Below the pieces are notes generated by a model, which had not been told where the DNA came from, searched no databases, and saw only the letters and a list, made by a program, of their open reading frames with translations. This document shows positions 1 through 12,137 of a DNA stretch of 64,000 nucleotides, in pieces; positions within the stretch are counted from its first letter, which is position 1; each line of letters begins with the position of its first letter. The stretch is taken from the sequence record OR621298, one strand, 5' to 3'. The position numbers were made by a program, and so were the translations under genes. Source of the DNA: Escherichia phage vB_EcoD-Elw.

Positions 1-90
1 GTGCAAGTAAGGATCTTGAGGTATTATTACCTAAACGTTTGTCACTTACTACTAATCGAAATACTTTCATTTCGAAATCCTCTATTAAAG

Positions 91-168
91 TGGAAGCGGG
101 TGCAGGAATCGAACCTACCTCTTTCTAGCTTATGAGACTAGCGATCTCTACCAGAGATCTAACCCGCA
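91..168 (-). tRNA. tRNA-Met/fMet-like (anticodon CAT)
   Basis: Reverse-complement gives T-arm GTAGG-TTCGATT-CCTGC, acceptor ACCCGCT plus encoded CCA, anticodon loop CTCATAA; position 1:72 unpaired, as in initiator tRNA. Confidence 0.65.
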
Positions 169-174
169 ATTGTT

Positions 175-252
175 TGGTCTCCGTGGGAGGATTTGAACCC
201 CCGACCCTATCGCCCCAAACGAAACGCTCTGGCCAAACTGAGCTACACGGAG
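175..252 (-). tRNA. tRNA-Pro (anticodon TGG)
   Basis: T-arm GGGGG-TTCAAAT-CCTCC, 7-bp acceptor CTCCGTG/CACGGAG, encoded CCA, anticodon loop TTTGGGG. Confidence 0.65.
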
Positions 253-256
253 AATA

Positions 257-415
257 TTATTTCTTCAACCACAACAAAGATAAGCCCAGCATACTAAAGC
301 CGCTAACTAATCCGATACATTTTTCTTCTATAGTAAAAGTATCTAGATTAAATGCTGTTATAGCTATTGGCATACACCATAATGTCATAAAAACTTGAGC
401 TATCTTGTGTTTCAT
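257..415 (-). CDS. small hydrophobic protein (52 aa), hypothetical
   Basis: ATG at 415 preceded by GAAGGAAAG RBS; translates MKHKIAQVFMTLWCMPIAITAFNLDTFTIEEKCIGLVSGFSMLGLSLLWLKK; below the 60-aa cutoff of the ORF track. Confidence 0.45.
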   Translation of the reverse strand: MKHKIAQVFMTLWCMPIAITAFNLDTFTIEEKCIGLVSGFSMLGLSLLWLKK

Positions 416-447
416 TTTGCTTTCCTTCTCTTCACTTTATAAAATAT

Positions 448-476
448 ATTATACAGATAATATAGCAGAATAGCAA
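448..476 (-). promoter_or_regulatory. sigma70-type early promoter (TTGCTA-17-TATAAT)
   Basis: On minus strand: TTGCTA, 17-nt spacer, TATAAT; same motif recurs throughout the early region. Confidence 0.6.
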
Positions 477-787
477 ATGAATTTTTAATAAATTTACTTA
501 TTGTGTAGGCCACCTGGAGGCTACCAACCCCACGGCTGACAAAGAAGTTTGCGAGACCTCTCTTAAATGCCAGAATAGACCCGCCGATCTATCGGAACCT
601 ACATAATAAGTAAACTTTCGTTTACTTACGCCCCGTTAGAGGGACTTTAGCGACTAGAACCGGCCGGAAACTTCATCGCCTTGTTTATTCAGAAGTCCGT
701 TCTCTAGGGAGCAGAAATCTAAATTTGGTGGAGTTTGGGAGACTACGTGTTACTCCCTCTGTCCGAAGTAGGATAGTGCTTAACCGT

Positions 788-979
788 TTAGCTGAACCCC
801 TTTAAATATTTATACGTTTTATCTAACAACTCTTGTTTAGAGATTATACCATCACGATATTCAGTAATAAAATTATCTATGTTGGAGTCCTTTGATACAA
901 CGTTATCAGATAGCTCTGTGAATTTATTTGCTAAAAGATCTAATTCTTTGTAATTCACAAAACCTCCAGAATATGCCAT
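788..979 (-). CDS. hypothetical protein (63 aa)
   Basis: ORF only; no Shine-Dalgarno sequence, and the start codon lies inside the adjacent tRNA-like element. Confidence 0.3.
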   Translation of the reverse strand: MAYSGGFVNYKELDLLANKFTELSDNVVSKDSNIDNFITEYRDGIISKQELLDKTYKYLKGFS

Positions 980-1097
980 TCTAGACAGGACTCGAACCTG
1001 CTATCACTTGTGCGGACTTACGAGAACCATTCTTTCACTCGAATCGAACGAGCTTCTGCCCTAGCCAAGCTGGTTTCCCCATCAACCACGCTAGAAT
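978..1097 (-). ncRNA. anomalous tRNA-like element (two T-loop motifs, no encoded CCA)
   Basis: Two canonical T-arm motifs on minus strand (GCAGG-TTCGAGT-CCTGT and GCTCG-TTCGATT-CGAGT) 45 nt apart; only acceptor pairing found (ATTCTAG/CTAGAAT) spans about 120 nt. Confidence 0.3.
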
Positions 1098-1219
1098 GTT
1101 TGATTGTTTTCAGTGCAAGAGTCCGAGTCTTGGACACGACCGCTTCGCAAGTACATAGGCAGCTTATCATGAGTCAGCACTTCCGAATTGCTAGCTCCGT
1201 GTTCTGCACTGAGATTTTG

Positions 1220-1567
1220 TTAATTTAATAGTAAAGTACGATCTACTTCACCATTAATTGTTCGGCATTCCTCTGGAATTGCTGGTGTAGTCTTATATTC
1301 CCACCATTCAGAACCATCATATTCACCACGTTCTAACCAAGTTCCATCAGTAAACCATACGTTACCATAAAGCAATTGTCCACCGAAACCAGAATCATAT
1401 TTAAAGTCTAGATTATTTAGAAAATCTTCAATATCTTTTTCTGTATAACCTACGGGTAATACCCAAACTTCTTTGTCTCCATAATAACCGAATTCTATCT
1501 TAATACACTTAACTTCAGAATTAGTATTCTTTAGGGCAAGTAACAATTCTTCTTTAGCATTAATCAT
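1220..1567 (-). CDS. hypothetical protein (115 aa)
   Basis: ORF with ATG at 1567; no recognisable motif. Confidence 0.5.
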   Translation of the reverse strand: MINAKEELLLALKNTNSEVKCIKIEFGYYGDKEVWVLPVGYTEKDIEDFLNNLDFKYDSGFGGQLLYGNVWFTDGTWLERGEYDGSEWWEYKTTPAIPEECRTINGEVDRTLLLN

Positions 1568-1593
1568 AGCATATTTCTCATACTAAATTAATT

Positions 1594-1669
1594 TGGTACA
1601 CCCACTAGGACTTGAACCTAGAACCCTCCGCTTAAGAGGCGGTAGCTCTAACCATTGAGCTATGGGTGT
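1594..1669 (-). tRNA. tRNA-Lys (anticodon CTT)
   Basis: 76 nt; acceptor ACACCCA/TGGGTGT, D-arm GCTC..GAGC, anticodon loop CTCTTAA, T-arm CTAGG-TTCAAGT-CCTAG, encoded CCA. Confidence 0.7.
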
Positions 1670-1675
1670 ATTAAA

Positions 1676-1828
1676 TTACTTTTCCAGTTCATCAGCTATG
1701 GCTTTGATTTTTTCAAAGTTTACATCACTAATAATGATACCTTCCAGTGACAGAGATATTCTAGCATTTTTCATAGCAGATTCTTTTATCTGCTCTATTT
1801 CTTCTGGAGTAAACTCCCTACGTTCCAT
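1676..1828 (-). CDS. small hypothetical protein (50 aa)
   Basis: ATG at 1828 with AAGGTAGG RBS; MERREFTPEEIEQIKESAMKNARISLSLEGIIISDVNFEKIKAIADELEK; sits between tRNA-Lys and tRNA-Asp. Confidence 0.4.
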   Translation of the reverse strand: MERREFTPEEIEQIKESAMKNARISLSLEGIIISDVNFEKIKAIADELEK

Positions 1829-1845
1829 AGCTAACCTACCTTATT

Positions 1846-1922
1846 TGGCGCGACCGATGGGATTTGAACCCACATTCCCTCCCGTGACAGGAGAGTACCA
1901 TTACCAAGCCAGCCCCGGTCGC
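1846..1922 (-). tRNA. tRNA-Asp (anticodon GTC)
   Basis: Acceptor GCGACCG/CGGTCGC, anticodon loop CTGTCAC, T-loop TTCAAAT, encoded CCA. Confidence 0.7.
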
Positions 1923-1931
1923 ATAATTCAT

Positions 1932-2117
1932 TTACTCAGCTTTGAGCTTTTCAATAGCTGCATTAAGTTCTTTAAGAAACTCTTTTCGTACATTAAGACG
2001 ATTGAGACTTACTAGTATATCGTGTTTAAGTTCTTCGATGTATTTCTTTTCAACTTCAATATTGTTGATAGTGCTATCACGATGAACTTCTAGCTGCGCA
2101 ATTACATTCTTGGACAT
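1932..2117 (-). CDS. hypothetical coiled-coil protein (61 aa)
   Basis: ATG at 2117 with GAGGA RBS. Confidence 0.5.
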   Translation of the reverse strand: MSKNVIAQLEVHRDSTINNIEVEKKYIEELKHDILVSLNRLNVRKEFLKELNAAIEKLKAE

Positions 2118-2144
2118 GCTTGTTTCCTCAGTTATTAATGAAAA

Positions 2145-2217
2145 TGGTATCTGTGGCTGAATTCGATGTCAGCAATGATAGCTGGTTGGCTACCGGTTTA
2201 CTTAACTCTACACAGAA
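2145..2217 (-). tRNA. tRNA-like gene with non-canonical loops (anticodon unresolved)
   Basis: Encoded CCA, acceptor TTCTGTG/CACAGAT (6 bp), T-arm GCTGA-CATCGAAT-TCAGC with 8-nt loop; central stem GGTAG/CTATC with 8-nt loop; ends 2 nt from the next tRNA. Confidence 0.35.
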
Positions 2218-2219
2218 TT

Positions 2220-2297
2220 TGGCGGTTCCTGCTGGATTCGAACCAGCAAACCTCAACTTAACAAGATGCCGCTCTAACCAATTAGAGCTAAGGAACC
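2220..2297 (-). tRNA. tRNA-Asn (anticodon GTT), tentative
   Basis: Perfect acceptor GGTTCCT/AGGAACC, T-arm GCTGG-TTCGAAT-CCAGC, CCA, anticodon loop TTGTTAA; anticodon stem weak (3 of 5 pairs). Confidence 0.6.
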
Positions 2298-2792
2298 ATA
2301 TAAGTCAGAACTAGAGTTAATACGTTCTAGATATTTACTAAGATCCCTAGAATTTATACTAAACCACTCATGTTCTTTTAAATCTTTGAAATACTGGTGA
2401 ATTAGTTTTTCACCTTTTCGTTTGTCAAACCAAAACGACCAATGCTCTAATTTATAATCCCTATATGGGGAATAGGTCTGATATTGAGCTAATCTCTCTT
2501 TTGGATTTTGACTCATACCTATTTTATACTGATTTTTCCATGCAGGATTACTAATACAGTATACAAAACCTTCAGAAATAGGAAGTTTATTTTCCTGCTT
2601 AAACTTTATAAAGGAAAGTGCGGCAAGTTTTCTCGAATACATAGTATTCGTATTCTTTTTGGTATTACCATTAGTTCCTGAAAGATTTATATATTCTTCC
2701 ATAAATCTTTGGATTAGTTCTGCGGTTATACAGAAAGGCCCATTAGTAACAACGCCTTTCTTTACCAAACTATCAAAAACTTTTGTATGCAC
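2274..2792 (-). CDS. T5orf172 / GIY-YIG-like domain protein
   Basis: 172-aa ORF with GTG start and AAGGAAAG RBS; segment FVYCISNPAWKNQYKIGMSQNPKERLAQYQ resembles the T5orf172 (MUG113) domain; 3' end overlaps the tRNA at 2220-2297. Confidence 0.6.
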   Translation of the reverse strand: MHTKVFDSLVKKGVVTNGPFCITAELIQRFMEEYINLSGTNGNTKKNTNTMYSRKLAALSFIKFKQENKLPISEGFVYCISNPAWKNQYKIGMSQNPKERLAQYQTYSPYRDYKLEHWSFWFDKRKGEKLIHQYFKDLKEHEWFSINSRDLSKYLERINSSSDLYGSLALIG

Positions 2793-2813
2793 TACTTCTT
2801 TCCTTTAGTAAAT

Positions 2814-2889
2814 TGGACGACCGCATGAGATTTGAACTCACATAAAAAGGATTTGCAATCCTTCGCCTAAGCCCTTCAGCCAACGGTCG
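2814..2889 (-). tRNA. tRNA-Cys (anticodon GCA)
   Basis: Anticodon arm AAGGA-TTGCAAA-TCCTT (perfect), T-arm GTGAG-TTCAAAT-CTCAT, acceptor CGACCGT/GCGGTCG, CCA. Confidence 0.75.
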
Positions 2890-2958
2890 GTTTATCTTGT
2901 TCTGTCATGTTGCTTCTCCAGTTCAATTTATGTAATTATTATACAGAACTTTTGGAAA

Positions 2959-3231
2959 CTAAGCAACTACATTTTTTAAGAATTTGATGCCTTTCTTTTT
3001 CTTCTTATATTTCCACGTTAATGGATTCTGTCGATTATGAACGCTTGAGATCTTTGTCTCGTCAAAGTTCTTCAATATCATGTAATCACAGGATAATTGT
3101 TCTAGTAGAATGTGATCACCGTCAAAAGCGTATACATAAGGCTGTTGACTAACACGATAATGATAGACTTTGTTAATTCTACGTTTCAGCGACTTATCAG
3201 CGCAGTAAATAAAGAAGTTTTCAGGATGCAT
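2959..3231 (-). CDS. hypothetical protein (about 90 aa)
   Basis: In-frame ATG at 3231 preceded by AAGGAG; the longer ORF would start at TTG 3246. Confidence 0.5.
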   Translation of the reverse strand: MHPENFFIYCADKSLKRRINKVYHYRVSQQPYVYAFDGDHILLEQLSCDYMILKNFDETKISSVHNRQNPLTWKYKKKKKGIKFLKNVVA

Positions 3232-3248
3232 CAGCAGCTCCTTCAATT

Positions 3249-3323
3249 TGGTGCACCCTGTTCGTATCGAACGAACCTCTCAAGCTCTTCAGGCAAGCGC
3301 TAATCCATCTCAGCTAAAGGTGC
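3249..3323 (-). tRNA. tRNA-Phe (anticodon GAA)
   Basis: Acceptor GCACCTT/AGGGTGC, D-arm GCTG..TAGC, anticodon loop CTGAAGA, T-arm GTTCG-TTCGATA-CGAAC, CCA; anticodon stem has two U-U mismatches. Confidence 0.6.
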
Positions 3324-3329
3324 AAATTT

Positions 3330-3406
3330 TGGCAAACCTACTAGGACTCGAACCTAGACCGTACGGTTTTGGAGACCGACATGCTGTCCAGTAACACTCT
3401 AGGAAT
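3330..3406 (-). tRNA. tRNA-Trp (anticodon CCA), tentative
   Basis: T-arm CTAGG-TTCGAGT-CCTAG, CCA, anticodon loop CTCCAAA; acceptor stem has two U-U mismatches, so possibly degenerate. Confidence 0.5.
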
Positions 3407-3414
3407 GCAGAAAT

Positions 3415-3491
3415 TGGCGTCCTGTGCGGGGATCGAACCCGCAAATCCTACCTTGAAAGGGTAGTGACTTTACCAGTTTGTCTAACAGGAC
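3415..3491 (-). tRNA. tRNA-Glu (anticodon TTC)
   Basis: Acceptor GTCCTGT/ACAGGAC, anticodon arm CTACC-CTTTCAA-GGTAG (perfect), T-loop TTCGATC, CCA. Confidence 0.75.
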
Positions 3492-3498
3492 TTAAATT

Positions 3499-3589
3499 TG
3501 GTGTTGGATGATGGAGTCGAACCACCCGAGACCCTTCCGAGTCGGCAGATTTACAGTCTGCTTCGCTACCTCTACGATACTAATCCAAC
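3499..3589 (-). tRNA. tRNA-Tyr (anticodon GTA), long variable arm
   Basis: 91 nt; acceptor GTTGGAT/ATCCAAC, anticodon arm GCAGA-CTGTAAA-TCTGC, long variable arm, T-loop TTCGACT, CCA. Confidence 0.75.
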
Positions 3590-3654
3590 ATATTTAGAAG
3601 TATTCAAAAATTCTCATTTAAACACTTTTAAATATGCTTTCAAATTAGGTAACT

Positions 3655-3663
3655 ATTATACCA
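3655..3663 (-). promoter_or_regulatory. extended -10 promoter (TGGTATAAT) for the tRNA-Tyr/Glu/Trp/Phe cluster
   Basis: Minus-strand TGGTATAAT about 65 nt upstream of the tRNA-Tyr 5' end. Confidence 0.4.
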
Positions 3664-3672
3664 AGTTTTAAG

Positions 3673-3711
3673 GCACTGAGCAAGTCAAATTTTAAAGAAC
3701 TTGCTCAGTGC
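3673..3711. other. perfect 13-bp inverted repeat (stem-loop) downstream of the 3720-3995 gene
   Basis: GCACTGAGCAAGT..ACTTGCTCAGTGC with 13-nt loop; no U-run on either side, so likely a processing or stability hairpin rather than a terminator. Confidence 0.5.
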
Positions 3712-3719
3712 TATATTAG

Positions 3720-3995
3720 TTAGTCGAACTTAGGAGTGACAGTTAAGGAGAACGGAAGTTCGAAAACTTCTTCACCCTCATTACTAACGGTAACTACACG
3801 ACCTTTAAGTTCAGACATTAAAATATCAATATCAGCTTTTGCATCTGGAGCCATGCCAGCTTCAATACATTTAGCTTTAACCTCCGGTAGAAGATCTACG
3901 TTATAGAGATAGAGCCACTCAATCTCACCTTCCCAGTCTTCCCAGGATTTGCAGATTGCACTTTCAATACCAGTTGCTACAACACGATTTTGCAT
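3720..3995 (-). CDS. hypothetical protein (91 aa)
   Basis: ATG at 3995 with GAAGGAG RBS and an upstream TTGCCT-18-TATAAT promoter. Confidence 0.55.
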   Translation of the reverse strand: MQNRVVATGIESAICKSWEDWEGEIEWLYLYNVDLLPEVKAKCIEAGMAPDAKADIDILMSELKGRVVTVSNEGEEVFELPFSLTVTPKFD

Positions 3996-4025
3996 TCGTT
4001 AACTCCTTCATCAATTTATACAACT

Positions 4026-4055
4026 ATTATATCAGAAATTTAAAGCAAAAGGCAA
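4026..4055 (-). promoter_or_regulatory. sigma70-type early promoter
   Basis: Minus strand TTGCCT, 18-nt spacer, TATAAT. Confidence 0.55.
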
Positions 4056-4085
4056 GTACATTTTTAAAAATTCTGTTTGGAGGAG

Positions 4086-4292
4086 CTAAACTCCAGATTC
4101 TTCAGCTAAGTCTAGGCTAATAAGAGTTATAGCCATAATTGCTGCACCGTGTTCTTTTTCTCCGGTGTTTTTAGCAGAGTCTATAATAGTCTTAATCTGT
4201 TCGTAATAGCCTTTTACTTCTTGTTCAATACCTGCCTCGGCTATCATGCCTTTAGTCATGATTCGTTGCATAGTAATTTCACGGTTAGCCAT
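4086..4292 (-). CDS. hypothetical protein (68 aa)
   Basis: ATG at 4292 with GGAGA RBS; start overlaps the stop of the upstream small ORF. Confidence 0.5.
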   Translation of the reverse strand: MANREITMQRIMTKGMIAEAGIEQEVKGYYEQIKTIIDSAKNTGEKEHGAAIMAITLISLDLAEESGV

Positions 4293-4452
4293 GATGTTTC
4301 TCCAGCTTCATTTTTAATAGTTTACAAATGAAATCAACGTCTTCATCTGTACCTAGATCTCTATCTTCAAGAGTTGCCTTGAAGTTTTTAGTCAATTCCA
4401 TGAGGATAACTTCTCTAGAACGACGTGTTGGCGGAGGTGGATGTCTATACAT
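4285..4452 (-). CDS. small hypothetical protein (55 aa, proline-rich N-terminus)
   Basis: ATG at 4452 with AAGGAAA RBS; MYRHPPPPTRRSREVILMEL...; stop overlaps the next start. Confidence 0.4.
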   Translation of the reverse strand: MYRHPPPPTRRSREVILMELTKNFKATLEDRDLGTDEDVDFICKLLKMKLEKHHG

Positions 4453-4467
4453 CTTATTTCCTTAGTT

Positions 4468-4544
4468 TGGTAGGGGTGGTGGGATTCGAACCCACAAAAC
4501 CTGAATTTTAAGTCCAGTACCTATGCCAATTCGATTACACCCCC
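4468..4544 (-). tRNA. tRNA with anticodon TAA (Leu-type anticodon on a short-variable-arm body)
   Basis: Acceptor GGGGGTG/CACCCCT, anticodon arm CTGGA-CTTAAAA-TTCAG, T-arm GTGGG-TTCGAAT-CCCAC, CCA; no long variable arm; D-arm unclear. Confidence 0.55.
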
Positions 4545-4551
4545 GTGTAGT

Positions 4552-4740
4552 TTAGTCAATTACTTTTGAGGCTTCAAGGTAGTCGATATAGTGTATGTTT
4601 TCTACCGTAATCATATAATCTGCCACTTTATCCATAGCTTGGGCTTCAGAGGTAGCTCTGGCTAACCTATATCCTTTTTTATATTCATCCGGGTATTCTC
4701 TATCTTGGATAAACACAACATAAACTATATATAGATCCAT
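4552..4740 (-). CDS. hypothetical protein (62 aa)
   Basis: ATG at 4740 with AGAGG RBS. Confidence 0.5.
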   Translation of the reverse strand: MDLYIVYVVFIQDREYPDEYKKGYRLARATSEAQAMDKVADYMITVENIHYIDYLEASKVID

Positions 4741-4759
4741 TTGTGACCTCTATTTAATT

Positions 4760-4837
4760 TGGTGGCTCCCCGAGGATTCGAACCTACGTACCTTCCGGTT
4801 ATGAGCCGGGTGCTCATACCATATGAGCTTGAGAACC
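4760..4837 (-). tRNA. tRNA with anticodon CAT (elongator Met or Ile-lysidine type)
   Basis: Acceptor GGTTCTC/GGGAGCC (two G-U pairs), anticodon loop CTCATAA, T-loop TTCGAAT with weak T-stem, CCA. Confidence 0.55.
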
Positions 4838-4843
4838 AGAATT

Positions 4844-4932
4844 TGGCGGAAGAAGCGGGAATCGAACCCACAAGGCTATATTTCAAACCGACAGATTAGC
4901 AATCTGCTGCAATACCGTTATGCTATTCTTCC
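4844..4932 (-). tRNA. tRNA-Ser (anticodon GCT), long variable arm
   Basis: 89 nt; acceptor GGAAGAA/TTCTTCC, anticodon loop TTGCTAA, long variable arm, T-arm GTGGG-TTCGATT-CCCGC, CCA. Confidence 0.75.
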
Positions 4933-4947
4933 GAATTTATAAGATAT

Positions 4948-4976
4948 ATTATATTAGAAATTTAGCTTCATAGCAA
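4948..4976 (-). promoter_or_regulatory. sigma70-type early promoter (TTGCTA-17-TATAAT)
   Basis: Minus-strand consensus motif directly upstream of the tRNA-Ser/tRNA-CAT pair. Confidence 0.6.
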
Positions 4977-5472
4977 GAAAATTTTTCAAGTTTTCGGTAG
5001 ACATCTCATCCACATCTACGGGAGAAACAAAGCCGTTTAATTTTCTAGCAAATTTTTCACCCGCAGGATCATTATCTCCGACAGCTACCAATTTAAAAGG
5101 TAGTAATTTCAGTTGCTTTAATAACGCTTTTCCTGGAGAAGAACCCAACATTGCTAGGGCTGGATAACCAGCATTATGTAACGCAACTGCCTTAAATACA
5201 GATTCAGCAATCAATACTACTTTTTCATCTCCATTGAGAGTTTCTAGTCCCCATACACACTGGGTAGTAGAATAAGTAAAGTATTTAGCTTCAAAGGGGC
5301 ACTTACCATGACCTTTTGGAGCAGAAGGATTATAAGTTTGATAGCCCCTCAACATCCCAGAGAAGTCATACAACGGGACTGTTAGCCATCCTTCCGGACT
5401 TAACCAGCAATGATATTTATCTGTATCAAATCCTCTAGATAAGAGGTGCTGTGTTAGCTCATCAACATTCAT
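4954..5472 (-). CDS. TOPRIM-domain protein
   Basis: Start placed at the internal ATG 5472 (AAGAGGA RBS) because the longer ORF runs into its own promoter; conserved Glu (VVLIAESVF) and DxD (VAVGDNDPAG) TOPRIM motifs. Confidence 0.6.
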   Translation of the reverse strand: MNVDELTQHLLSRGFDTDKYHCWLSPEGWLTVPLYDFSGMLRGYQTYNPSAPKGHGKCPFEAKYFTYSTTQCVWGLETLNGDEKVVLIAESVFKAVALHNAGYPALAMLGSSPGKALLKQLKLLPFKLVAVGDNDPAGEKFARKLNGFVSPVDVDEMSTENLKNFLAMKLNF

Positions 5473-5502
5473 ATTTGGTTCCTCTTTCAAATTTATAGAT
5501 AT

Positions 5503-5531
5503 ATTATACAGAGAATTTAGCATTCAAGCAA
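5503..5531 (-). promoter_or_regulatory. sigma70-type early promoter (TTGCTT-17-TATAAT)
   Basis: Minus-strand consensus motif; start site about 25 nt upstream of ATG 5472. Confidence 0.6.
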
Positions 5532-5647
5532 TCAAATTTTTTAACTTTTTAGAGGAAAATCATAGGGCACTTAAGGATAGCAGATAAGTGGTGAGGACCA
5601 AAATTTGTGACCCCACTAAAAATTCAGGGGCAATTTTTAAAGACCCC

Positions 5648-5676
5648 TTGACATTTTCGCTGGGGTAGTGTAAAGT
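5648..5676 (+). promoter_or_regulatory. candidate promoter of the plus-strand island (TTGACA-17-TAAAGT)
   Basis: Perfect -35 TTGACA with 17-nt spacer and weaker -10 TAAAGT; short inverted repeats just upstream. Confidence 0.45.
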
Positions 5677-5737
5677 ATATGTTATGGATGAGTGATCAAA
5701 GAGACACACATTTTCTATATACTAGGAGGTGTCAAAA

Positions 5738-6721
5738 ATGACAGAAGAAGTAGCTAAGAGTCCTGAGACCGTCGCTAGCGTTGCAGCAGAACTGCACCGT
5801 CACGAGGAATCAGATAAGAAAAAGTGGGAGAAGGTCAGAGCCTACGAAGAAAAACATCGTGAACACGATGATGAAGAAGATGATGATGAACATTGTCATA
5901 AATATGGAAAACATAAAATGCAAGAACCAGTAAACGTATTTACTAGTGGCTTCCCTGGCCTACTGGGTGGTTACCCAGCAAACGCAGGTGCTTTCGGTGG
6001 TGAAGGTATGGGACTATTCGGAGCTATCCTAATCGGTGCTCTATTAACAGGCGGATTCGGTGGTTTCGGTGGATTCGGTGGACGTGGTGTAGTTGGTGAT
6101 GGTACCGCAGTTGATGCAGTACTTCAGAACCAAGATACCGCTAGTATTCTAGCAGCTATTAACACTACTCGTACAGAAGCTAACCAGGGTACTGGAGCTG
6201 TTTTAAGCGCAGTTAACAATGGGTTTAGCCAGACATCCCAAAACCAGAGCCGTGATACTCAGTCTGTACTAACTACGATCTATGGTACAGGTGCTAATCT
6301 GTCTAATCAGATCTGTCAGGAAACTCGCAACGTTATTCAGGGTCAGTTCGATCTTTCTCGCCAGATTGATCAATCTTTCGCAGCTAATCAGATAGCTCGT
6401 GCACAAGATAAGTTTGATTCTGCACAGATCGCTTTCCAGCAGACTTTACAAACTAATAACCAGTTTGCCGCTGTTCAGGCTCAGATGTGTGCTAACCAGA
6501 ACTCTCTGGAACGTCAGATCGCTGAATGTTGCTGTGAACTTCAGACTGCGATCGCTGGTGTAACTACTGCGCGTATTCAGGATGAGTTAGATGCATGTCG
6601 CCTACGTGAAGCAATCGCTGCGGGTAACGGTGCTAACGGTCAGGTAATTAATCAAATCGCTGTAAGTCTTGGTGCTATCACTCAGACTCTGGCTGGTCTG
6701 CAGGCTAAACTGCCGGCTTAA
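5738..6721 (+). CDS. glycine-zipper protein with His/acidic N-terminus and Gln/Asn-rich C-terminal half (327 aa), function unknown
   Basis: ATG 5738 with AGGAGG 8 nt upstream (track start 5729 is GTG); hydrophobic GxxxG-repeat segment GLFGAILIGALLTGGFGGFGGFGG; CCC motif; GGT/CGT/CTG-biased codon usage unlike neighbours. Confidence 0.7.
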   Translation: MTEEVAKSPETVASVAAELHRHEESDKKKWEKVRAYEEKHREHDDEEDDDEHCHKYGKHKMQEPVNVFTSGFPGLLGGYPANAGAFGGEGMGLFGAILIGALLTGGFGGFGGFGGRGVVGDGTAVDAVLQNQDTASILAAINTTRTEANQGTGAVLSAVNNGFSQTSQNQSRDTQSVLTTIYGTGANLSNQICQETRNVIQGQFDLSRQIDQSFAANQIARAQDKFDSAQIAFQQTLQTNNQFAAVQAQMCANQNSLERQIAECCCELQTAIAGVTTARIQDELDACRLREAIAAGNGANGQVINQIAVSLGAITQTLAGLQAKLPA

Positions 6722-6742
6722 TATTAAGGGGAGGAGCCCATT

Positions 6743-7159
6743 ATGAGTAAATATGGTTTTGTAAATAACGGACTTAATCAAAGTATGGGCTCCCAGCAGC
6801 CCATTCCGGGTCTGGATAACCCCTACTTACAACAATTGCAACAGCGTTTAGCAGAAGCGCAACAGATGCAGCAACAACTCCAGCAAAACCCTGGAAGTGT
6901 GAGTCCTATGCAAATGATGCAGCAAATGAGCGGGCAGTCGCAAATGCCTCAACAAATGCAGCAACAGGTGCCGCAGCAGCAAGCTCAGCAGCAAACCCAA
7001 CAACCGCAGGTTTCTGCGGAAGGACAGGCAGTACTAGCCCTTTTCGAAGACTTCGCAAAGACAGAGGATGGTAAGCAGCTTGTATCACTTATGGGTAAGT
7101 TTAATAGCTTCTGCCAAAGCCAGGTTGCAAAAGCTCAAAATAGTGGTAATAACTCCTAA
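6743..7159 (+). CDS. Gln-rich low-complexity protein (138 aa), function unknown
   Basis: ATG 6743 with AAGGGGAGGAG RBS; long QQ/MQ runs, ordered C-terminal 50 aa. Confidence 0.7.
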   Translation: MSKYGFVNNGLNQSMGSQQPIPGLDNPYLQQLQQRLAEAQQMQQQLQQNPGSVSPMQMMQQMSGQSQMPQQMQQQVPQQQAQQQTQQPQVSAEGQAVLALFEDFAKTEDGKQLVSLMGKFNSFCQSQVAKAQNSGNNS

Positions 7160-7168
7160 GGAGGAATT

Positions 7169-7363
7169 ATGTGTTGCAGAAAATCTGTTTCGTGCTGCCC
7201 AATGCCTGTAGCACGTTGTTGCTCTCCAGCAATGTTTACGCAAATACCGGCGTTCAATCCGTTTGCCTTTAAGCCTACTCTTATCCTGCCCCCTAGAGTA
7301 GATTTTCAGTCAAGATTGGCCTCCCGTATGGGTGGTTGCTGTAATAAGAGTATATGGTTCTGA
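7169..7363 (+). CDS. Cys-rich small protein (64 aa, four CC dipeptides), function unknown
   Basis: ATG 7169 with AAGGAGG RBS; MCCRKSVSCCPMPVARCCSP...GGCCNKSIWF; followed immediately by an intrinsic terminator. Confidence 0.6.
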   Translation: MCCRKSVSCCPMPVARCCSPAMFTQIPAFNPFAFKPTLILPPRVDFQSRLASRMGGCCNKSIWF

Positions 7364-7379
7364 AGAACCAAACAATAAA

Positions 7380-7413
7380 GCCCCTAGTCGAAAGACTTAG
7401 GGGCTTTTCTTTT
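7380..7413 (+). terminator. rho-independent terminator ending the plus-strand island
   Basis: Stem GCCCCTA/TAGGGGC with 11-nt loop, then TTTTCTTTT. Confidence 0.7.
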
Positions 7414-7420
7414 ATCTTAA

Positions 7421-7458
7421 ATACAGAAAAGCCCTGCGCTCTCCAGGAAACGCAGGGC
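7421..7458 (-). terminator. rho-independent terminator after the SPFH gene
   Basis: Stem GCCCTGCG/CGCAGGGC followed on the minus strand by TTTTCTGTAT. Confidence 0.65.
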
Positions 7459-7483
7459 TTATTTCAGATGTTACATGCGGGTA

Positions 7484-8431
7484 TTACTTATTACGCATAT
7501 CCATAATCATTTGGCCATCATAGCCAGTGCCAACCACAGTCTGCGGTACACCACCTTGGTATTTCTGAGCACGAATCATTTCAACTTCCAGTTGCTTCCA
7601 GCGAATCATCTCAGGAGTAATGGTACGTTGCAACGCGGCGTTAGCTTCAGCTTCTTTCTTAGCTGCGTACAGTTTGGCATCTGCGTCACGCTCATTGGCA
7701 ATAGCTTGGTTATTACGAGCTTCGCGATCTGCTTCTGCTTGTTTAACCTTCTGCTGTGCTTCTTGTTCAACACGAGCCAGTTCAGCTTTCGCAGCATTAA
7801 CTTGCTCTTCACGAACTTTGGTATTCTGTACCTGTTCCATGATTACCGGTGGCAAAGTAATATCCTGAAGGAATACCTGCTTAACTGTATAACCATATGG
7901 GCGTGCATACTCTTCAACTTCCTGTTGAATTGCAGTTTGCAATTGAGCCTGAATTTTAGCATCAAACAAATCTTGTGCTTTAGGTACAGACTTACCAAAC
8001 TCACGAATAGTAGACAGTAATTTTTCAGTTACATATTTGTCTAGCGCTTGATCCTGAGTACCTGCGTTAATACGGTTAATCGGTGCCTTAGAACCATCAA
8101 ACTGCAACATAACAGTCAGGTCAACAGTGGATTTAAACTTATCCTGACTAGGAACCTGAAGTTTATCTAATTTTAGAGCAATATCTTTAGTACTAAAAGT
8201 ATCGAAAGAAGCAAAAGGATTTACAATATGAAAGCCGGGTAGTACTGGGCTAGGGTCAACTTTACCCAGGAAAGTCTGGGTTTTAACAGTACCGTCTTGA
8301 ACAACGGTATAAGAGTTAAAGGCTAGAATCAAGCCTGCTAAACCAACTATAGCACCAATACCCCAACGTTTAATAGTACGAATTACTTTCTGCTCAGAAG
8401 TCAGTTCTTTCATATTTTTAGTATTAAACAT
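7484..8431 (-). CDS. SPFH/band-7 (stomatin/prohibitin/HflC-like) membrane protein
   Basis: 315 aa; N-terminal hydrophobic helix (WGIGAIVGLAGLILAF), central SPFH-like region, C-terminal Ala/Glu/Lys/Gln coiled coil; ATG 8431 with AAGGAAA RBS. Confidence 0.8.
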   Translation of the reverse strand: MFNTKNMKELTSEQKVIRTIKRWGIGAIVGLAGLILAFNSYTVVQDGTVKTQTFLGKVDPSPVLPGFHIVNPFASFDTFSTKDIALKLDKLQVPSQDKFKSTVDLTVMLQFDGSKAPINRINAGTQDQALDKYVTEKLLSTIREFGKSVPKAQDLFDAKIQAQLQTAIQQEVEEYARPYGYTVKQVFLQDITLPPVIMEQVQNTKVREEQVNAAKAELARVEQEAQQKVKQAEADREARNNQAIANERDADAKLYAAKKEAEANAALQRTITPEMIRWKQLEVEMIRAQKYQGGVPQTVVGTGYDGQMIMDMRNK

Positions 8432-8465
8432 ATATTTCCTTTGTTTTAGTTACAGTTAATAAAAT

Positions 8466-8540
8466 TGGCCGAGGTGACAGGATTCGAACCTGCATAAAGG
8501 AATTTAGAAGACTCCTGCCTCTCCATTAGACTACACCCCG
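8466..8540 (-). tRNA. tRNA-Arg (anticodon TCT)
   Basis: Acceptor CGGGGTG/CACCTCG, anticodon arm GGAGT-CTTCTAA-ATTCC, T-arm GCAGG-TTCGAAT-CCTGT, CCA. Confidence 0.75.
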
Positions 8541-9042
8541 TTTAAGTATTTTTAAGAACTCTCGTAAAAACTCTTAAAAATACAGACGATACCGGGAGAG
8601 TCATAAGTCTCACTCATTAAGTATTTCAAGACAAAATACAGTAACGTCTATTATTTTCCAGTTTAAGTCAAGGTGACTTAGTGGTTATGTCCTGCGGTAT
8701 ACTGAGGACTCGGTTAGGATTGGGGTCATGACTTCCCGCCTTTTGCTGCTACTCAACAGGAGTTATCGCGAATTACCTGTGCTATTGTGCACCATTAGTG
8801 ACATCTCTCATGTCAGCATTTCCCACTTTGTGGATAGCTTGAAAAACTACTCCGATATGGAGAAAGAACTTCACTATCCTAGAATACCTTCTAAAGTTCT
8901 TCTTTAGCCTGGACATAGTTAAATCGTAATAAAACTATTCAGCAGACTAGTTGGTTAGTCTGGAACCAACTACCGCGTGGTTTAGGCAGTGCGCAACTAA
9001 CCTCGGAAGCTTTTACGTTAAAAGCATCAGTTATCCAGTTCT

Positions 9043-9114
9043 TACCGACCGTAGGATTCGAACCTACATCTTCCACCAGTTACGGCTTGATAATACCAAT
9101 TATACTAGGACGGC
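9043..9114 (-). pseudogene. degenerate tRNA-like element (no CCA, no anticodon stem)
   Basis: Canonical T-arm GTAGG-TTCGAAT-CCTAC and 6-bp acceptor GCCGTCC/GGTCGGT, but no convincing anticodon arm and no encoded CCA. Confidence 0.35.
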
Positions 9115-9337
9115 AGTGTTACTACATAAGTGATTTCCACACCCCACTATTTATAAATTAGGGAAGAGTTTAGGGGAGAGGTTTCAGACGCCTCATTTTA
9201 TACGTTCTAGCCACTAACCGGGATTGCCGCCCCCTGTGTACTAGTTTTACAACTAACCCACCGACTCTATTCAATGCGCTCCGGTTGGGATTCTGCACTC
9301 AGCGTAATCGGCTCGCTGTTCCCTAATTTATGAATAT

Positions 9338-9366
9338 ATTATACAGAATTTATAAGCATTTAGCAA
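9338..9366 (-). promoter_or_regulatory. sigma70-type early promoter (TTGCTA-17-TATAAT)
   Basis: Minus-strand consensus; would transcribe the 8541-9337 leader, tRNA-Arg and the SPFH gene. Confidence 0.6.
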
Positions 9367-9374
9367 ATGAATTT

Positions 9375-9809
9375 TTAGAAAAATTCACTAGCGATCAAAG
9401 CAGTTGTTTTACCGTCATAACGTCCAGGAAATTCTGCCTTAATAGTTTTCATTAATAGAGCTTTGGTAATACCTGGATTTAATTTAACCAGTTCTGCAAA
9501 ATACTCACGAATCTGAACTTCAGTTAACTGCTCCAGAGCATATTCATGCTCTAGACCTGCTAACAAGTCGAGATATTCAGCATCTGGAGTATATTCGATA
9601 TTTGCTTTTGCAGCAGAAGTCATTGTATTCTCAATTGCTTTGAACTGTGATTTAACCCAGTTAGTAAACTCTAGTCTAGATACGCAATCTTTATCAATTC
9701 GTTGTAAGTCGCCTAAAATCGTACTAAGGTGCTTGACTGACACAGTATCACCGTGTTTGCGAGCTTTTTCAATTAATTCTCGCAGCACACGAATCATATT
9801 CGTACCCAT
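9375..9809 (-). CDS. hypothetical protein (144 aa)
   Basis: ATG at 9809 overlapping the stop of the upstream small ORF (TAATG). Confidence 0.55.
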   Translation of the reverse strand: MGTNMIRVLRELIEKARKHGDTVSVKHLSTILGDLQRIDKDCVSRLEFTNWVKSQFKAIENTMTSAAKANIEYTPDAEYLDLLAGLEHEYALEQLTEVQIREYFAELVKLNPGITKALLMKTIKAEFPGRYDGKTTALIASEFF

Positions 9810-9979
9810 TATTTCATCCCCAATGCTTGGTTAAAAGATTGTTCTGTCATAACTGCTGAGACTTTGGCGAAATCAAACTTTTTAGGGTTCGTAGTGATTT
9901 CAGCAACGTTAGAAGTTTTAACAGTTTTCGTAGTACGAATACCACGAGTGTTAACACCAATAATTACAACTGATTTCAT
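9809..9979 (-). CDS. small hypothetical protein (56 aa)
   Basis: ATG at 9979 with GAGGAAG RBS; translationally coupled to the 144-aa gene. Confidence 0.45.
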   Translation of the reverse strand: MKSVVIIGVNTRGIRTTKTVKTSNVAEITTNPKKFDFAKVSAVMTEQSFNQALGMK

Positions 9980-10010
9980 ATTTCGCTTCCTCTCATTAAT
10001 TTATGAAAGT

Positions 10011-10039
10011 ATTATACAGAAATTTAAGTAGTTAAGCAA
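10011..10039 (-). promoter_or_regulatory. sigma70-type early promoter (TTGCTT-17-TATAAT)
   Basis: Minus-strand consensus motif. Confidence 0.6.
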
Positions 10040-10047
10040 GTAAATTT

Positions 10048-10497
10048 TTAAGTTTTAGTGACAACAGGTTTATAAAACGTATGTCCCTTAATCTTAGTTG
10101 TTTTCTTAAACTTCTTTGTCCAGTAAGGTTTATCTTTACCACTATGGAAGTATAGTGCTCCATGTGTAGGATCTTGTGGTAAATCAACGTAGTATATCAC
10201 TCTAGCTAAATTCTTAGCGGTTTGCCAAGCCTCATCAGTTTTATCAACTTTTGGTCTCTTAGATACCCAAGAGAACTGGTTAGACTGATATACTACTTTA
10301 CAGTAGGAATCTGGGAATTTACCGGAGTTTACACGGTTTTTAGTAACATATGCAATCGCCGTCATTCCCTTTATGCCCTCACCACGACTTTCGAAATAGA
10401 TATTTTTAGCAATGCAATCTATTTCTTTTGCATCGTGCGATGCCTGACTACTAAAGCTGAAGGTAAGGGCAGCTACTAAAAGCAAAGCTGCCTTCAT
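10048..10497 (-). CDS. secreted cell-wall hydrolase (SleB/Hydrolase_2-like)
   Basis: Start placed at ATG 10497 (AGGAG RBS); N-terminal signal peptide MKAALLLVAALTFSFSSQA; cell-wall hydrolase-like core. Confidence 0.7.
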   Translation of the reverse strand: MKAALLLVAALTFSFSSQASHDAKEIDCIAKNIYFESRGEGIKGMTAIAYVTKNRVNSGKFPDSYCKVVYQSNQFSWVSKRPKVDKTDEAWQTAKNLARVIYYVDLPQDPTHGALYFHSGKDKPYWTKKFKKTTKIKGHTFYKPVVTKT

Positions 10498-10502
10498 TCT
10501 TT

Positions 10503-10820
10503 TTACTCCTGCCAATCATATTCAACACGATTGGGATTTTCTTTATACCCTAAGTCAAGCAAATCATTACGCATATTTTGCTTAGCTACTGGGTTCGAGG
10601 TTACTAGTACCACTTTCTTTGGTCTCTGTCCAAATTCTAAGAGTAAACGAAGAATTTGATAACCTTCCATACCATCTACAGCCAAGTCATTATCCATATA
10701 AACGAAATGGCCTGTGGTATCAGTTTTATTCAGAAACTCTACAGCGGCTTCTGGGGTTCGAATGATAATGTCCATTCCGTGAAGATTGCGCACATCATCA
10801 ATCAAAATATGAAAAGTCAT
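10503..10820 (-). CDS. stand-alone receiver (CheY-like REC) domain protein
   Basis: 105 aa; REC-like pattern with acidic pair (HILIDDV), central Asp (YMDNDLAVDG), Thr (VVLVTSNP) and Lys; ATG at 10820; stop lies 6 nt upstream of the hydrolase ATG at 10497. Confidence 0.55.
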   Translation of the reverse strand: MTFHILIDDVRNLHGMDIIIRTPEAAVEFLNKTDTTGHFVYMDNDLAVDGMEGYQILRLLLEFGQRPKKVVLVTSNPVAKQNMRNDLLDLGYKENPNRVEYDWQE

Positions 10821-10850
10821 AATAGCCTCGTTTCATCAATTTAAAAATAT

Positions 10851-10879
10851 ATTATACACATAATTTAGTAAATTAGCAA
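10851..10879 (-). promoter_or_regulatory. sigma70-type early promoter (TTGCTA-17-TATAAT)
   Basis: Minus-strand consensus motif. Confidence 0.6.
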
Positions 10880-11262
10880 ATACATTTTTAAATTGTGAAA
10901 CTAGTAAACCGATAAACAGCCTAGAGGCGCCACAGGCCATATCTTATGAGCCATGTACCTTTGATCTAGGGTTTGAATCATCAACGAATACTTTGCATCT
11001 TTTAGCTTTAGAAGTTTAGAAGTTTGAGTTCTTTAAACTTTTCAGCTTTCATACTTAAATGTTGATCTTTGAAGTTGTGTCGGTAATATCAACGACGCTT
11101 TGTTTTTACGTGTCAGATTAAATGTCTGATGTAATAAACATAATCTCCAATAGATTATACTTTATAGTATGGTCAGCGGTCTTATTTAACCTCGTATTTC
11201 AACCGCTGCTGCGAGGTAAGATGCTTGGGCTTTCGTCTACCGATTTACTAGCTTTTAAATTA

Positions 11263-11901
11263 TTACTCTACTTCAATGAAGGTAGAGGCGTTAGACTCGG
11301 ACAGAACAAAGTCAACATTTGTTGCAAAGTCCTGATATTCCTCGTCATGCTGCTTAATCAGCTTCTCCAGTTCCAGCGGATCAATCAAGAATGGAGTATT
11401 CTTGAGTTCCAGCAGGTTGAGCTGCATTTTAACCTCATCTTCGGAAGTTTTCTTATCGCGGGTAGCCATGCTATCCTGCAAACGCTCATATTTAGTATCA
11501 AACTGTGCTTTCTGCGTATTAAACTTAACCGTAGCGGCGTGGAACTGCTTACGCATGTTAGCCAGCAGTTGAGCTTTAAGTTCCATAGAACGCTTAGCTT
11601 CAATTGCTTCCGCAACAGTCATCTTACGAGAACCAATCTCAACTACTGTTTCCGCATTGCTCTTAATCAGAGCAGCTTTGATACGATCACGCTGGGACAT
11701 CATATCCAGGAGAGATTGGAAATCTGCCTTAATACGAGCAGATAGATCGTCTACTTCGATTGCAGCGCCAACTACAACCTTATTTTTATCCTTACCTTCA
11801 CCAACAGCGATCAGAAGCTGTTGTTCAGTAGCTTTACGGATTTTAGCTTCCAGAGATTTGATAGTTGCCAGAGCGCGAGTTTTAGAGATACGAGTAGTCA
11901 T
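11263..11901 (-). CDS. hypothetical protein (212 aa)
   Basis: ATG at 11901 with AAGGAAG RBS; no recognisable motif. Confidence 0.6.
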   Translation of the reverse strand: MTTRISKTRALATIKSLEAKIRKATEQQLLIAVGEGKDKNKVVVGAAIEVDDLSARIKADFQSLLDMMSQRDRIKAALIKSNAETVVEIGSRKMTVAEAIEAKRSMELKAQLLANMRKQFHAATVKFNTQKAQFDTKYERLQDSMATRDKKTSEDEVKMQLNLLELKNTPFLIDPLELEKLIKQHDEEYQDFATNVDFVLSESNASTFIEVE

Positions 11902-11954
11902 TATTTGCTTCCTTATATGAAGTTTGAGATTTGAATTTGTTTAAATTTGGTCTA

Positions 11955-12137
11955 TTACAGACCAATTGCCAGCAGAGTGCGCAGAACAGTATCGTTACTG
12001 TTATCAATTTTAGGATTAGCACGATTTAGCAGATCAAAGATTTTCTGGATACCTGATTGACGTTCAGCCATACGACGGATACCCAGATTACGAGTAGCTT
12101 TCTTACCATTTTTACGAACATTTTTAGATACTGGCAT
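11955..12137 (-). CDS. small basic protein (60 aa)
   Basis: ATG at 12137 with AAGGAAA RBS. Confidence 0.5.
   Translation of the reverse strand: MPVSKNVRKNGKKATRNLGIRRMAERQSGIQKIFDLLNRANPKIDNSNDTVLRTLLAIGL

Follow-up and report, generated by a model that had tools for sequence, protein, structure and literature searches.

A three-gene operon shared by T5-like and unrelated phages, and its possible action at the cell envelope

Closest described systems

Membrane proteins that exclude superinfecting phages are encoded by morons in several phages, for example Imm and Sp in T4, SieA in P22, gp15 in HK97 and Llp in T5. Here we describe three adjacent genes, ORF1, ORF2 and ORF3 (open reading frames; together, the trio), in a 64,000-nucleotide stretch of Escherichia phage vB_EcoD-Elw (sequence record OR621298; hereafter the window). 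The trio has the features by which a moron is recognised: it carries its own promoter and terminator, lies on the strand opposite to both neighbours, is patchily distributed, occurs in unrelated phage backbones and is dispensable. It thus shares with the exclusion morons an independent transcription unit, dispensability for lytic growth, probable membrane association and a patchy pattern of horizontal spread. It differs from them in lacking homology, in comprising three genes with a long predicted rod, and in not having been found in prophages of 185,579 genomes; exclusion itself is a role that we propose for it. The reading we favour, tentatively, is that the trio encodes a horizontally mobile, dispensable, moron-like accessory complex of the envelope which may serve exclusion or counter-defence. 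An accessory module of the moron type is suggested because the trio is an autonomous, packed operon that is dispensable, mobile as a unit and located beside proven anti-defence genes. The cell envelope is suggested as the site of action because ORF1 is predicted to be a membrane-anchored, Cys-locked rod with two small partners. A moron-like accessory operon is a known category, and the three protein families are without characterised relatives.

Rad, tRNA-Tyr and ORF71/72 of the T5 anti-defence island counter retrons (bioRxiv 10.1101/2023.03.15.532788). The trio resembles these genes in its neighbourhood, its dispensability and its probable spontaneous loss in laboratory stocks, but its products look envelope-associated and not like nucleic-acid enzymes. 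Glycine-zipper membrane proteins, such as the SlyB/PCP-type lipoproteins and pinholin S21, offer a second comparison; ORF1 has the same small-xxx-small register over about six turns, but differs in its large flanking domains. TolA-type proteins span the periplasm and are rich in Ala, Lys and Glu. ORF1 likewise appears to have an N-terminal membrane anchor followed by a very long helix able to cross the periplasm, but it shows no similarity to TolA-type proteins, has no globular C-terminal domain and is rich in Gln, Asn, Ser and Thr instead.

An autonomous operon in several phage backbones

By sequence, the window is that of a T5-like phage. Region 5630-7460, which contains the trio, is 99.2% identical to Escherichia phage vB_EcoS_VAH1 and matches 237 T5-like (Demerecviridae) records. 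ORF1, ORF2 and ORF3 correspond to T5.077, T5.078 and T5.079 of the T5 reference NC_005859, each annotated 'hypothetical protein', with identities of 87% for ORF1 and 95% for ORF2 and an identical ORF3. Orthology is supported by both sequence and synteny, the trio occupying the slot between tRNA-Ser plus a Toprim gene and an SPFH gene. An earlier note on this DNA had proposed three co-oriented plus-strand ORFs here; all three were found exactly where it placed them (Table 1), between minus-strand genes at 4954-5523 and 7484-8431. The same gene order, with promoter P12 and a bidirectional terminator, is present in NC_005859. The anatomy of the operon is therefore already annotated in the T5 record and is not new.

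The expression signals named in the earlier note were all recovered. The sigma-70-type promoter, TTGACA-17-TAAAGT, coincides with the annotated T5 P12, and L024, a contig of a divergent T5-like phage, keeps both hexamers ahead of its copy of the cassette. Near-consensus ribosome binding sites precede all three genes (AGGAGG, GGAGG and AGGAGG, respectively), and the position of the first favours the ATG at 5738 over a GTG at 5729 as the start of ORF1. The dedicated terminator contains a hairpin at 7377-7407 with a fold energy of -20.2 kcal/mol (z = -5.1; 0/200 shuffles equally stable), followed by UUUUCUUUU. A simple terminator scan missed this hairpin because its stem is bulged. The homologous site in T5 is labelled 'efficient bidirectional rho-independent transcription terminator'. 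Just past the operon terminator, inside the terminator hairpin of the SPFH gene, the GCGC consensus of a T5 nick site is found at 7436-7439; the corresponding position in the T5 record is marked as a 'major DNA single-chain interruption'.

ORF1 homologues with 36-55% identity lie on contigs whose backbones differ widely. Intact trios were found in divergent T5-like phages (L023, L024), in two different lambdoid phages (L025/L026 and L052), in the 63-kb Pseudomonas aeruginosa phage RSP (L027), in an N4-like phage with a 3,440-aa virion RNA polymerase (L054/L055) and in a 56%-GC phage that encodes RdgC (L053). In the lambdoid genomes the trio is antisense, between the Q antiterminator gene and the holin-lysozyme-Rz-terminase genes. 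In all contexts examined the three genes stay together in the same order, with frames closely spaced or overlapping, and an intrinsic terminator follows ORF3 in all three other contexts scanned (L024, L025 and L027). The recurrence of the trio in six phage backbones, with a terminator after ORF3 wherever scanned, bears out the proposal of a self-contained transcription unit on the opposite strand. Comparison of these genomes indicates that the three genes pass together between unrelated phages. Scans of IMG/VR for the trio returned only close T5-likes, and a megablast search of the lambdoid cassette against complete E. coli genomes gave no match.

Genome comparison also indicates that accessory genes are swapped in the slot beside the SPFH gene. 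In Yersinia phage phiR2-01 (L057, HE956708 37522-39256), PnuC-like and NadR-like nicotinamide adenine dinucleotide (NAD)-salvage genes occupy this slot instead of Rad and the trio. In Bas26, Bas27 and Bas28, NadR-like genes adjoin the trio, accompanied in Bas26 and Bas28 by a PnuC-type transporter gene. As the trio is missing from its syntenic slot in phiR2-01, the virion/lysate proteome of that phage was uninformative on the trio.

Next to the trio and divergent from it, the Toprim/primase-like ORF at 4954-5523 (minus strand, 189 aa) is the homologue of T5.076 and of SP15 ORF75, which is Rad; ORF1 and ORF2 are SP15 ORF76 and ORF77. Rad is a retron anti-defence protein reported to degrade the retron non-coding RNA, and lies within an anti-defence island of about 8 kb that was spontaneously lost in the viable mutants T5n and SP15m (bioRxiv 10.1101/2023.03.15.532788). 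The window also contains a tRNA-Tyr gene (3499-3589) of the type reported to cancel retron Ec78 defence. In a genome-wide CRISPRi-ART knock-down of T5, T5.077, T5.078 and T5.079 were all scored 'Not Fit' and listed with 'unknown function' (PMC11879866, supplementary files 8 and 16). In a laboratory stock of Bas33, about 10 kb (69,093-78,863) is deleted, and its RNA-seq table has no entries for bas33_0083 to 0141; judging from gene order in Bas26, Bas27 and Bas28, this deletion should include the trio. The trio is thus dispensable, given its 'Not Fit' score, its position beside an island lost in viable mutants, the Bas33 deletion and the swapped slot of phiR2-01.

Table 1. Positions of the trio, its protein segments and its signals within the window
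Feature	Position	Strand	Description or basis
Sigma-70-type promoter TTGACA-17-TAAAGT	5648..5676	+	Promoter scan, 10/12 consensus positions; T5 P12
ORF1 ribosome binding site AGGAGG	5724..5729	+	8 nt before ATG 5738
ORF1, T5.077 homologue, 327 aa	5738..6721	+	Charged N-terminal domain, putative glycine-zipper anchor, long predicted helical rod with CCC
ORF1 residues 1-60, charged His/Asp/Glu-rich N-terminal domain	5738..5917	+	Conserved helix VAAEL.RHE..D
ORF1 residues 90-115, glycine-zipper (small-xxx-small) hydrophobic segment, putative membrane anchor	6005..6082	+	GMGLFGAILIGALLTGGFGGFGGFGG
ORF1 residues 134-324, one continuous alpha-helix (predicted), ~190 residues, ~28 nm	6137..6709	+	AlphaFold2
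CCC motif, Cys264-266	6527..6535	+	Invariant in family, nearly invariant in superfamily
ORF2 ribosome binding site GGAGG	6730-6734	+	Sequence
ORF2, T5.078 homologue, 138 aa	6743..7159	+	N-terminal helix motif, variable P/Q-rich linker, conserved C-terminal domain
ORF3 ribosome binding site AGGAGG	7159-7164	+	Overlaps ORF2 stop codon
ORF3, T5.079 homologue, 64 aa	7169..7363	+	Cationic Cys/Pro-rich peptide: MCC N-terminus, more CC pairs, FNPF motif
Intrinsic operon terminator, bulged G+C-rich hairpin and U tract	7377..7416	+	Fold energy; annotated in VAH1 and T5
Convergent terminator of the SPFH gene, bounding the island	7429..7460	-	13-bp stem and T tract

We also checked the codon usage of ORF1, which the earlier note had called E. 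coli-like and unlike that of its neighbours. The first part stands: the frequency of E. coli optimal codons (Fop) in ORF1 is 0.655, fifth of the 51 window ORFs. The second does not, since G+C content at third codon positions (GC3) is 0.33 against a window median of 0.31 and the neighbouring SPFH gene is also biased (Fop 0.61). The higher overall GC of ORF1 comes mostly from its Gly/Ala/Gln-rich amino-acid content. Its codon bias points to high expression, not to foreign composition; a foreign origin argued from codon usage was ruled out, as the GC3 of ORF1 is like that of its neighbours.

The convergent neighbour at 7484-8431 (minus strand) is an SPFH/Band-7 membrane protein gene, homologous to T5.080 (Pfam PF01145, E = 2.5e-17), so that the trio is flanked by another membrane-associated accessory gene. 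Window positions 1-12000 hold thirteen tRNA genes, all on the minus strand among small ORFs, and represent the T5 tRNA and anti-defence region. At 8541-9374, about 830 bases from tRNA-Arg to the next gene contain no ORF of at least 60 aa; its T5 counterpart is 'rnaX', a stable RNA of unknown function. Of all window ORFs, the one most biased towards optimal codons (Fop 0.83) encodes 255 aa at 35528-36295 (plus strand) and is presumably very highly expressed.

The ORF1 rod and its two small partners

The earlier note had described ORF1 as a protein with a His/Asp/Glu-rich N-terminus, a glycine-zipper segment and a Gln/Asn/Thr-rich half with a CCC motif, and each of these parts is present. The N-terminal domain consists of 52% D/E/K/R and 12% His, and its length and His content differ among homologues. 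An alignment of 16 homologues divides the protein into five parts: a conserved N-terminal helix, a variable acidic/His-rich stretch, the conserved motif M(Q/S)EPVNV(F/Y), the glycine-rich hydrophobic segment, which is kept throughout, and a C-terminal half in which CCC and other Cys residues are invariant and the final 30 residues almost so. Met61 (5918-5920), which opens M(Q/S)EPVNV just ahead of the glycine-rich segment, hardly varies within the family. A shorter isoform made from this Met is conceivable but unsupported, with only a weak GGA upstream. Within the hydrophobic segment, GMGLFGAILIGALLTGGFGGFGGFGG, small residues (G/A/G/T/G/G) recur at each fourth position over about six helical turns. 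None of the Pfam glycine-zipper families (Gly-zipper_Omp, Gly-zipper_YMGG, Rick_17kDa_Anti) matched ORF1 at E <= 1, and 'glycine zipper' is thus used here as a description of the motif only. A membrane-associated role of ORF1 fits this segment.

Most of the remainder of ORF1 is predicted to be a single helix. With a 69-sequence superfamily alignment, AlphaFold2 modelled the rod domain as helix over domain residues 14-204 (predicted local distance difference test, pLDDT, 88.4). At 1.5 Å per residue, some 190 residues give a rod of about 28 nm. It has 14% charged residues and 38% Q/N/S/T, and over ORF1 residues 125-230, the first half of the rod, its hydrophobic period is 3.7 residues rather than 3.5. 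The CCC motif is invariant in both family alignments and at least 90% conserved across the 69 superfamily sequences, whose members share the wider motif QLxAC.N...L.RQ.AECCCE...TRxLI...L. An AlphaFold2 model of full-length ORF1 built from 16 sequences was of low confidence (pLDDT 48; about 80 for a helix at 12-45) and was kept out of the fold search. Foldseek of the single-helix model against the PDB found nothing, as expected for a lone helix. A lone helix of 190 residues would imply an oligomeric coiled coil.

All three proteins lack a characterised family, in line with the earlier statement that no characterised function matches them. ORF1 matches PHROG 8119 over its full length (1-327, E = 4e-203) and ORF2 matches PHROG 7894 likewise (1-138, E = 1.4e-79), both families of 'unknown function'; ORF3 is in no PHROG. 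In Pfam, NCBIfam, PADLOC and the PDB (sequence and profile searches), none of ORF1, ORF2 and ORF3 had a match above noise. The sole PDB profile match of ORF1, to SlyB, is non-significant (E = 3), and sub-threshold matches of the trio proteins, for instance to RIFIN, Granulin and SlyB, are compositionally driven.

ORF1 nonetheless belongs to a large set of proteins. A profile search of 1.84 billion representative proteins returned 97 relatives (cluster representatives, E <= 1e-3). The CCC superfamily, as we define it, spans PHROGs 8119, 9288, 16490 and 9415, which are all of unknown function and are cross-matched by its members. Some relatives are encoded by crAss-like phages, in a gene between lysis genes (holin, endolysin, LysB-like) and tail genes, and carry the labels 'outer capsid protein/viral fiber' or 'spike protein/glycoprotein'. 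Such labels, the position near tail genes, and the fit of a long single helix with fibre-like composition would suit ORF1-family rods that are structural coiled-coil fibres of the virion. We consider this very improbable. The T5 operon has an early-type sigma-70 promoter and its own strand in the early region, the trio is dispensable for plaque formation, and in lambdoid phages it is antisense to the late operon; we read the crAss-like labels as transferred from distant similarity, not as resting on experiment.

Read with the standard code, the CCC-homologue frames of three crAss-like loci (L028, L031 and L032) are broken by in-frame stops. Some of the stops in L031 and L032 fall where a sister phage has Q, which suggests stop-codon recoding in these phages. 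Distant soluble CCC proteins lie mostly on contigs of 1-2 kb with little context. One of them, P0047 (L029, 358-1107), adjoins a gene with a weak Pox_A32-like packaging-ATPase match on a contig of 1.8 kb, a hint that membrane-containing, non-tailed viruses may also have members of the superfamily.

ORF2 had been described as a Gln-rich low-complexity protein. A Q-rich stretch does exist, but it is a variable linker that joins two strongly conserved parts, an N-terminal helix motif and a C-terminal domain. Among five divergent homologues the conserved ends read PYLQQLQQRL and LFxEFAxTxDGKQLVxxxGKFxxFCQS, the latter with one invariant Cys. All 117 ORF2 homologues are hypothetical and none has a Pfam domain, and a word-indexed homologue search with the alignment of the C-terminal domain gave no candidates. 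Several records label ORF2 'cAMP-dependent protein kinase catalytic subunit', a label that is unsupported, as Pfam shows no kinase domain. In T5-likes the linker is uncharged and 61% Q/N/S/T, a composition that could drive a condensate or prion-like assembly. We regard such an assembly as extremely improbable: no part of ORF2 is less conserved than the Q-rich stretch, other backbones have shorter, Pro-rich linkers in its place, and selection acts on the two end domains whilst the middle behaves as a spacer.

By sequence comparison, ORF3 is a real, conserved coding gene, because it is intact in all 22 close T5-like loci fetched, the ratio of nonsynonymous to synonymous substitution rates (dN/dS) is about 0.38 among 13 alleles, and a similar small ORF follows ORF2 in every distant context. 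The four CC dipeptides noted earlier are present. A small ORF of ORF3 character directly trails ORF2 in L023, L024, L025/26, L027, L052, L053 and L054; the distant homologues begin with MCC (or MCGCC, MSCNCGC), have a second CC pair and usually contain (F/V)NPF. ORF3 homologues are Pro-rich and net cationic, with 4-11 Cys mostly in vicinal pairs. None of eight homologues has a lipobox or a signal-like hydrophobic N-region, their Cys residues starting from position 2. The gene is mostly unannotated, and most GenBank records show only two genes in the region. SSP1 (L002 4546-4647) annotates a shorter 33-aa ORF, though its DNA encodes the same 64-aa ORF3.

The Cys content of ORF3, together with the His/Asp/Glu-rich N-terminus and CCC motif of ORF1, could indicate a metal or redox module that binds soft metals, for instance Zn, Cu or Ni. 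Glycine zippers occur in channel-forming proteins, and the zipper of ORF1 might form a small channel. In other T5-likes the N-terminal domain has runs such as HHYHHHHHEH, and the distant relatives P0038 and P0039 have His-rich juxtamembrane stretches as well. However, the lambdoid, N4-like, RSP and divergent T5-like homologues lack the His-rich and Met-rich stretches, no metal-binding family was matched, and only two CC pairs of ORF3 are conserved. A metal-binding function is thus improbable in our view.

Site of action and candidate functions

The orientation of ORF1 in the membrane bears directly on its function. In every homologue with a long N-tail, the 60-residue flank before the hydrophobic core has more K+R than the 60-residue flank after it (3-15 vs 2-5); the distant homologue P0033, for example, has the N-side K/R cluster KKHYKEKYRGKYRRMMKKAKK. 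This excess speaks for an N-terminus in the cytoplasm and a rod outside it. The conserved Cys and fibre-like composition of the rod would suit an oxidising compartment. We give the periplasmic-rod topology a chance a little better than even.

In the envelope complex that we favour, the glycine-zipper segment of ORF1 would anchor the protein at the inner membrane and leave its charged N-terminal domain on the cytoplasmic side. ORF1 would oligomerise into a coiled-coil rod of about 28 nm, with CCC and flanking Cys locking the chains; if periplasmic, a rod this long could bridge the periplasm. ORF2, with its conserved end domains and flexible P/Q linker, and the cationic, CC-rich ORF3 would be stoichiometric partners of ORF1. 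The complex would alter the envelope of the infected or lysogenised cell, either blocking superinfecting phages or countering envelope-linked host defence, and would serve no role in replication, lysis or virion structure.

Several points weigh against this complex. We infer its role in exclusion or counter-defence from context and architecture, and both the oligomer of ORF1 and its disulfide bonding are predicted. The rod could be cytoplasmic, because the hydrophobic core of some ORF1 homologues spans only 14-16 residues, ORF2 and ORF3 have no export signals, and many CCC relatives, about half of the wider superfamily representatives, are without any hydrophobic segment. No trio protein matched any of the 5,027 PADLOC-DB models at E <= 1, nor did Pfam yield a known superinfection-exclusion or defence family for any of them. 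No prophage copy was detected in scans of one genome per species from 185,579 bacterial and archaeal species, which required exact short-peptide matches. The missing prophage copies are unexpected for a moron that protects lysogens and count against such a role, within scans that needed such exact matches.

A cytoplasmic rod would allow a different form of counter-defence, in which the rod, ORF2 and ORF3 act on the cytoplasmic face of the membrane to sequester or inactivate a host immune sensor or effector. The lack of export signals in ORF2 and ORF3 and the many superfamily members without a hydrophobic segment speak for it, as does the position of the trio beside Rad at the edge of the anti-defence island. 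The island was split into nine fragments, of which only fragments 6 to 8 have an assigned function, and the plating efficiency of T5n is also reduced on a strain with AVAST type 2, a loss to which no gene was assigned (bioRxiv 10.1101/2023.03.15.532788). The text of the same paper does not mention ORF76 or ORF77 and reports no anti-defence activity for them (bioRxiv 10.1101/2023.03.15.532788). A low-charge, Q/N/S/T-rich rod of 28 nm with conserved Cys would be unusual for a cytoplasmic inhibitor, the proteins match no PADLOC or other family, and the N-side excess of K+R favours an external rod. Overall, we think this form of counter-defence rather unlikely, though it is the chief alternative to the envelope complex.

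The third place where such a rod might act is lysis. As in the lambda Rz/Rz1 spanins, a probably membrane-anchored protein with a long helix and conserved Cys is accompanied by a very small Pro/Cys-rich partner encoded nearby, so that ORF1 resembles an inner-membrane spanin in its predicted layout (N-terminal anchor, then long helix) and ORF3 resembles an outer-membrane one. The trio is also near lysis genes in lambdoid and crAss-like genomes: it directly adjoins the lysis cassette in two lambdoid phages, and the distant crAss-like homologue stands between the lysis and tail genes. A rod that bridges or braces the inner and outer membranes as a spanin-like or lysis-timing device, with ORF3 as its small partner, could therefore be envisaged. 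ORF1 differs from Rz, however, in sequence and in size. It had no match to PF03245 at E <= 1, and BLASTP against Rz of the lambdoid phage L025 aligned only 8/13 identities (E = 0.16); its helix of about 190 residues compares with 164-190 residues for the whole of Rz in two lambdoid loci. ORF3 has neither signal peptide nor lipobox in any of eight homologues, ORF2 has no spanin counterpart, and the operon is on the opposite strand under its own early-type sigma-70 promoter. Furthermore, Rz-type spanins are already encoded by every lambdoid and T5-like host of the trio; the lambdoid hosts have a holin, a lysozyme and an Rz besides the trio, and T5-likes carry holin, endolysin and Rz-like spanins elsewhere (PMC11664485). 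The trio was thus rejected as the spanin of its phages, since ORF1 is unlike Rz, ORF3 has no lipobox and the host phages have spanins of their own. It was likewise rejected as a holin, as there was no match to a holin family in Pfam and at the lambdoid loci the holin is encoded by a separate gene on the opposite strand. We consider a lysis-associated envelope device, whether spanin-like or for lysis timing, improbable.

Four aspects of the trio appear to be new: its recognition as a module shared across backbones, ORF3 as a conserved gene, the structure prediction for the rod, and the link to a large CCC superfamily with members in crAss-like phages. Although T5 is a classical model phage, the trio, at the edge of its experimentally defined anti-defence island, is without assigned function there. 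The intact exchange of the trio, together with the reach of the superfamily into the abundant crAss-like gut phages, suggests that its function is self-sufficient and of use across many phage-host settings. A more specific proposal, which we regard as doubtful, is that the trio is a machine of a kind not described before: a CCC-disulfide coiled-coil rod that would sit in the inner membrane and span the periplasm, with partners in the cytoplasm (a P/Q-linker protein and a cationic MCC peptide), and would act as a backbone-independent barrier to phages or to envelope-linked defence. If so, ORF1 would be the founding characterised member of a large CCC-rod superfamily reaching crAss-like gut phages. 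The operon is only 1.8 kb long and deletion mutants arise spontaneously, making it easy to test. The trio is thus a good candidate for a new mechanism of exclusion or counter-defence at the cell envelope.

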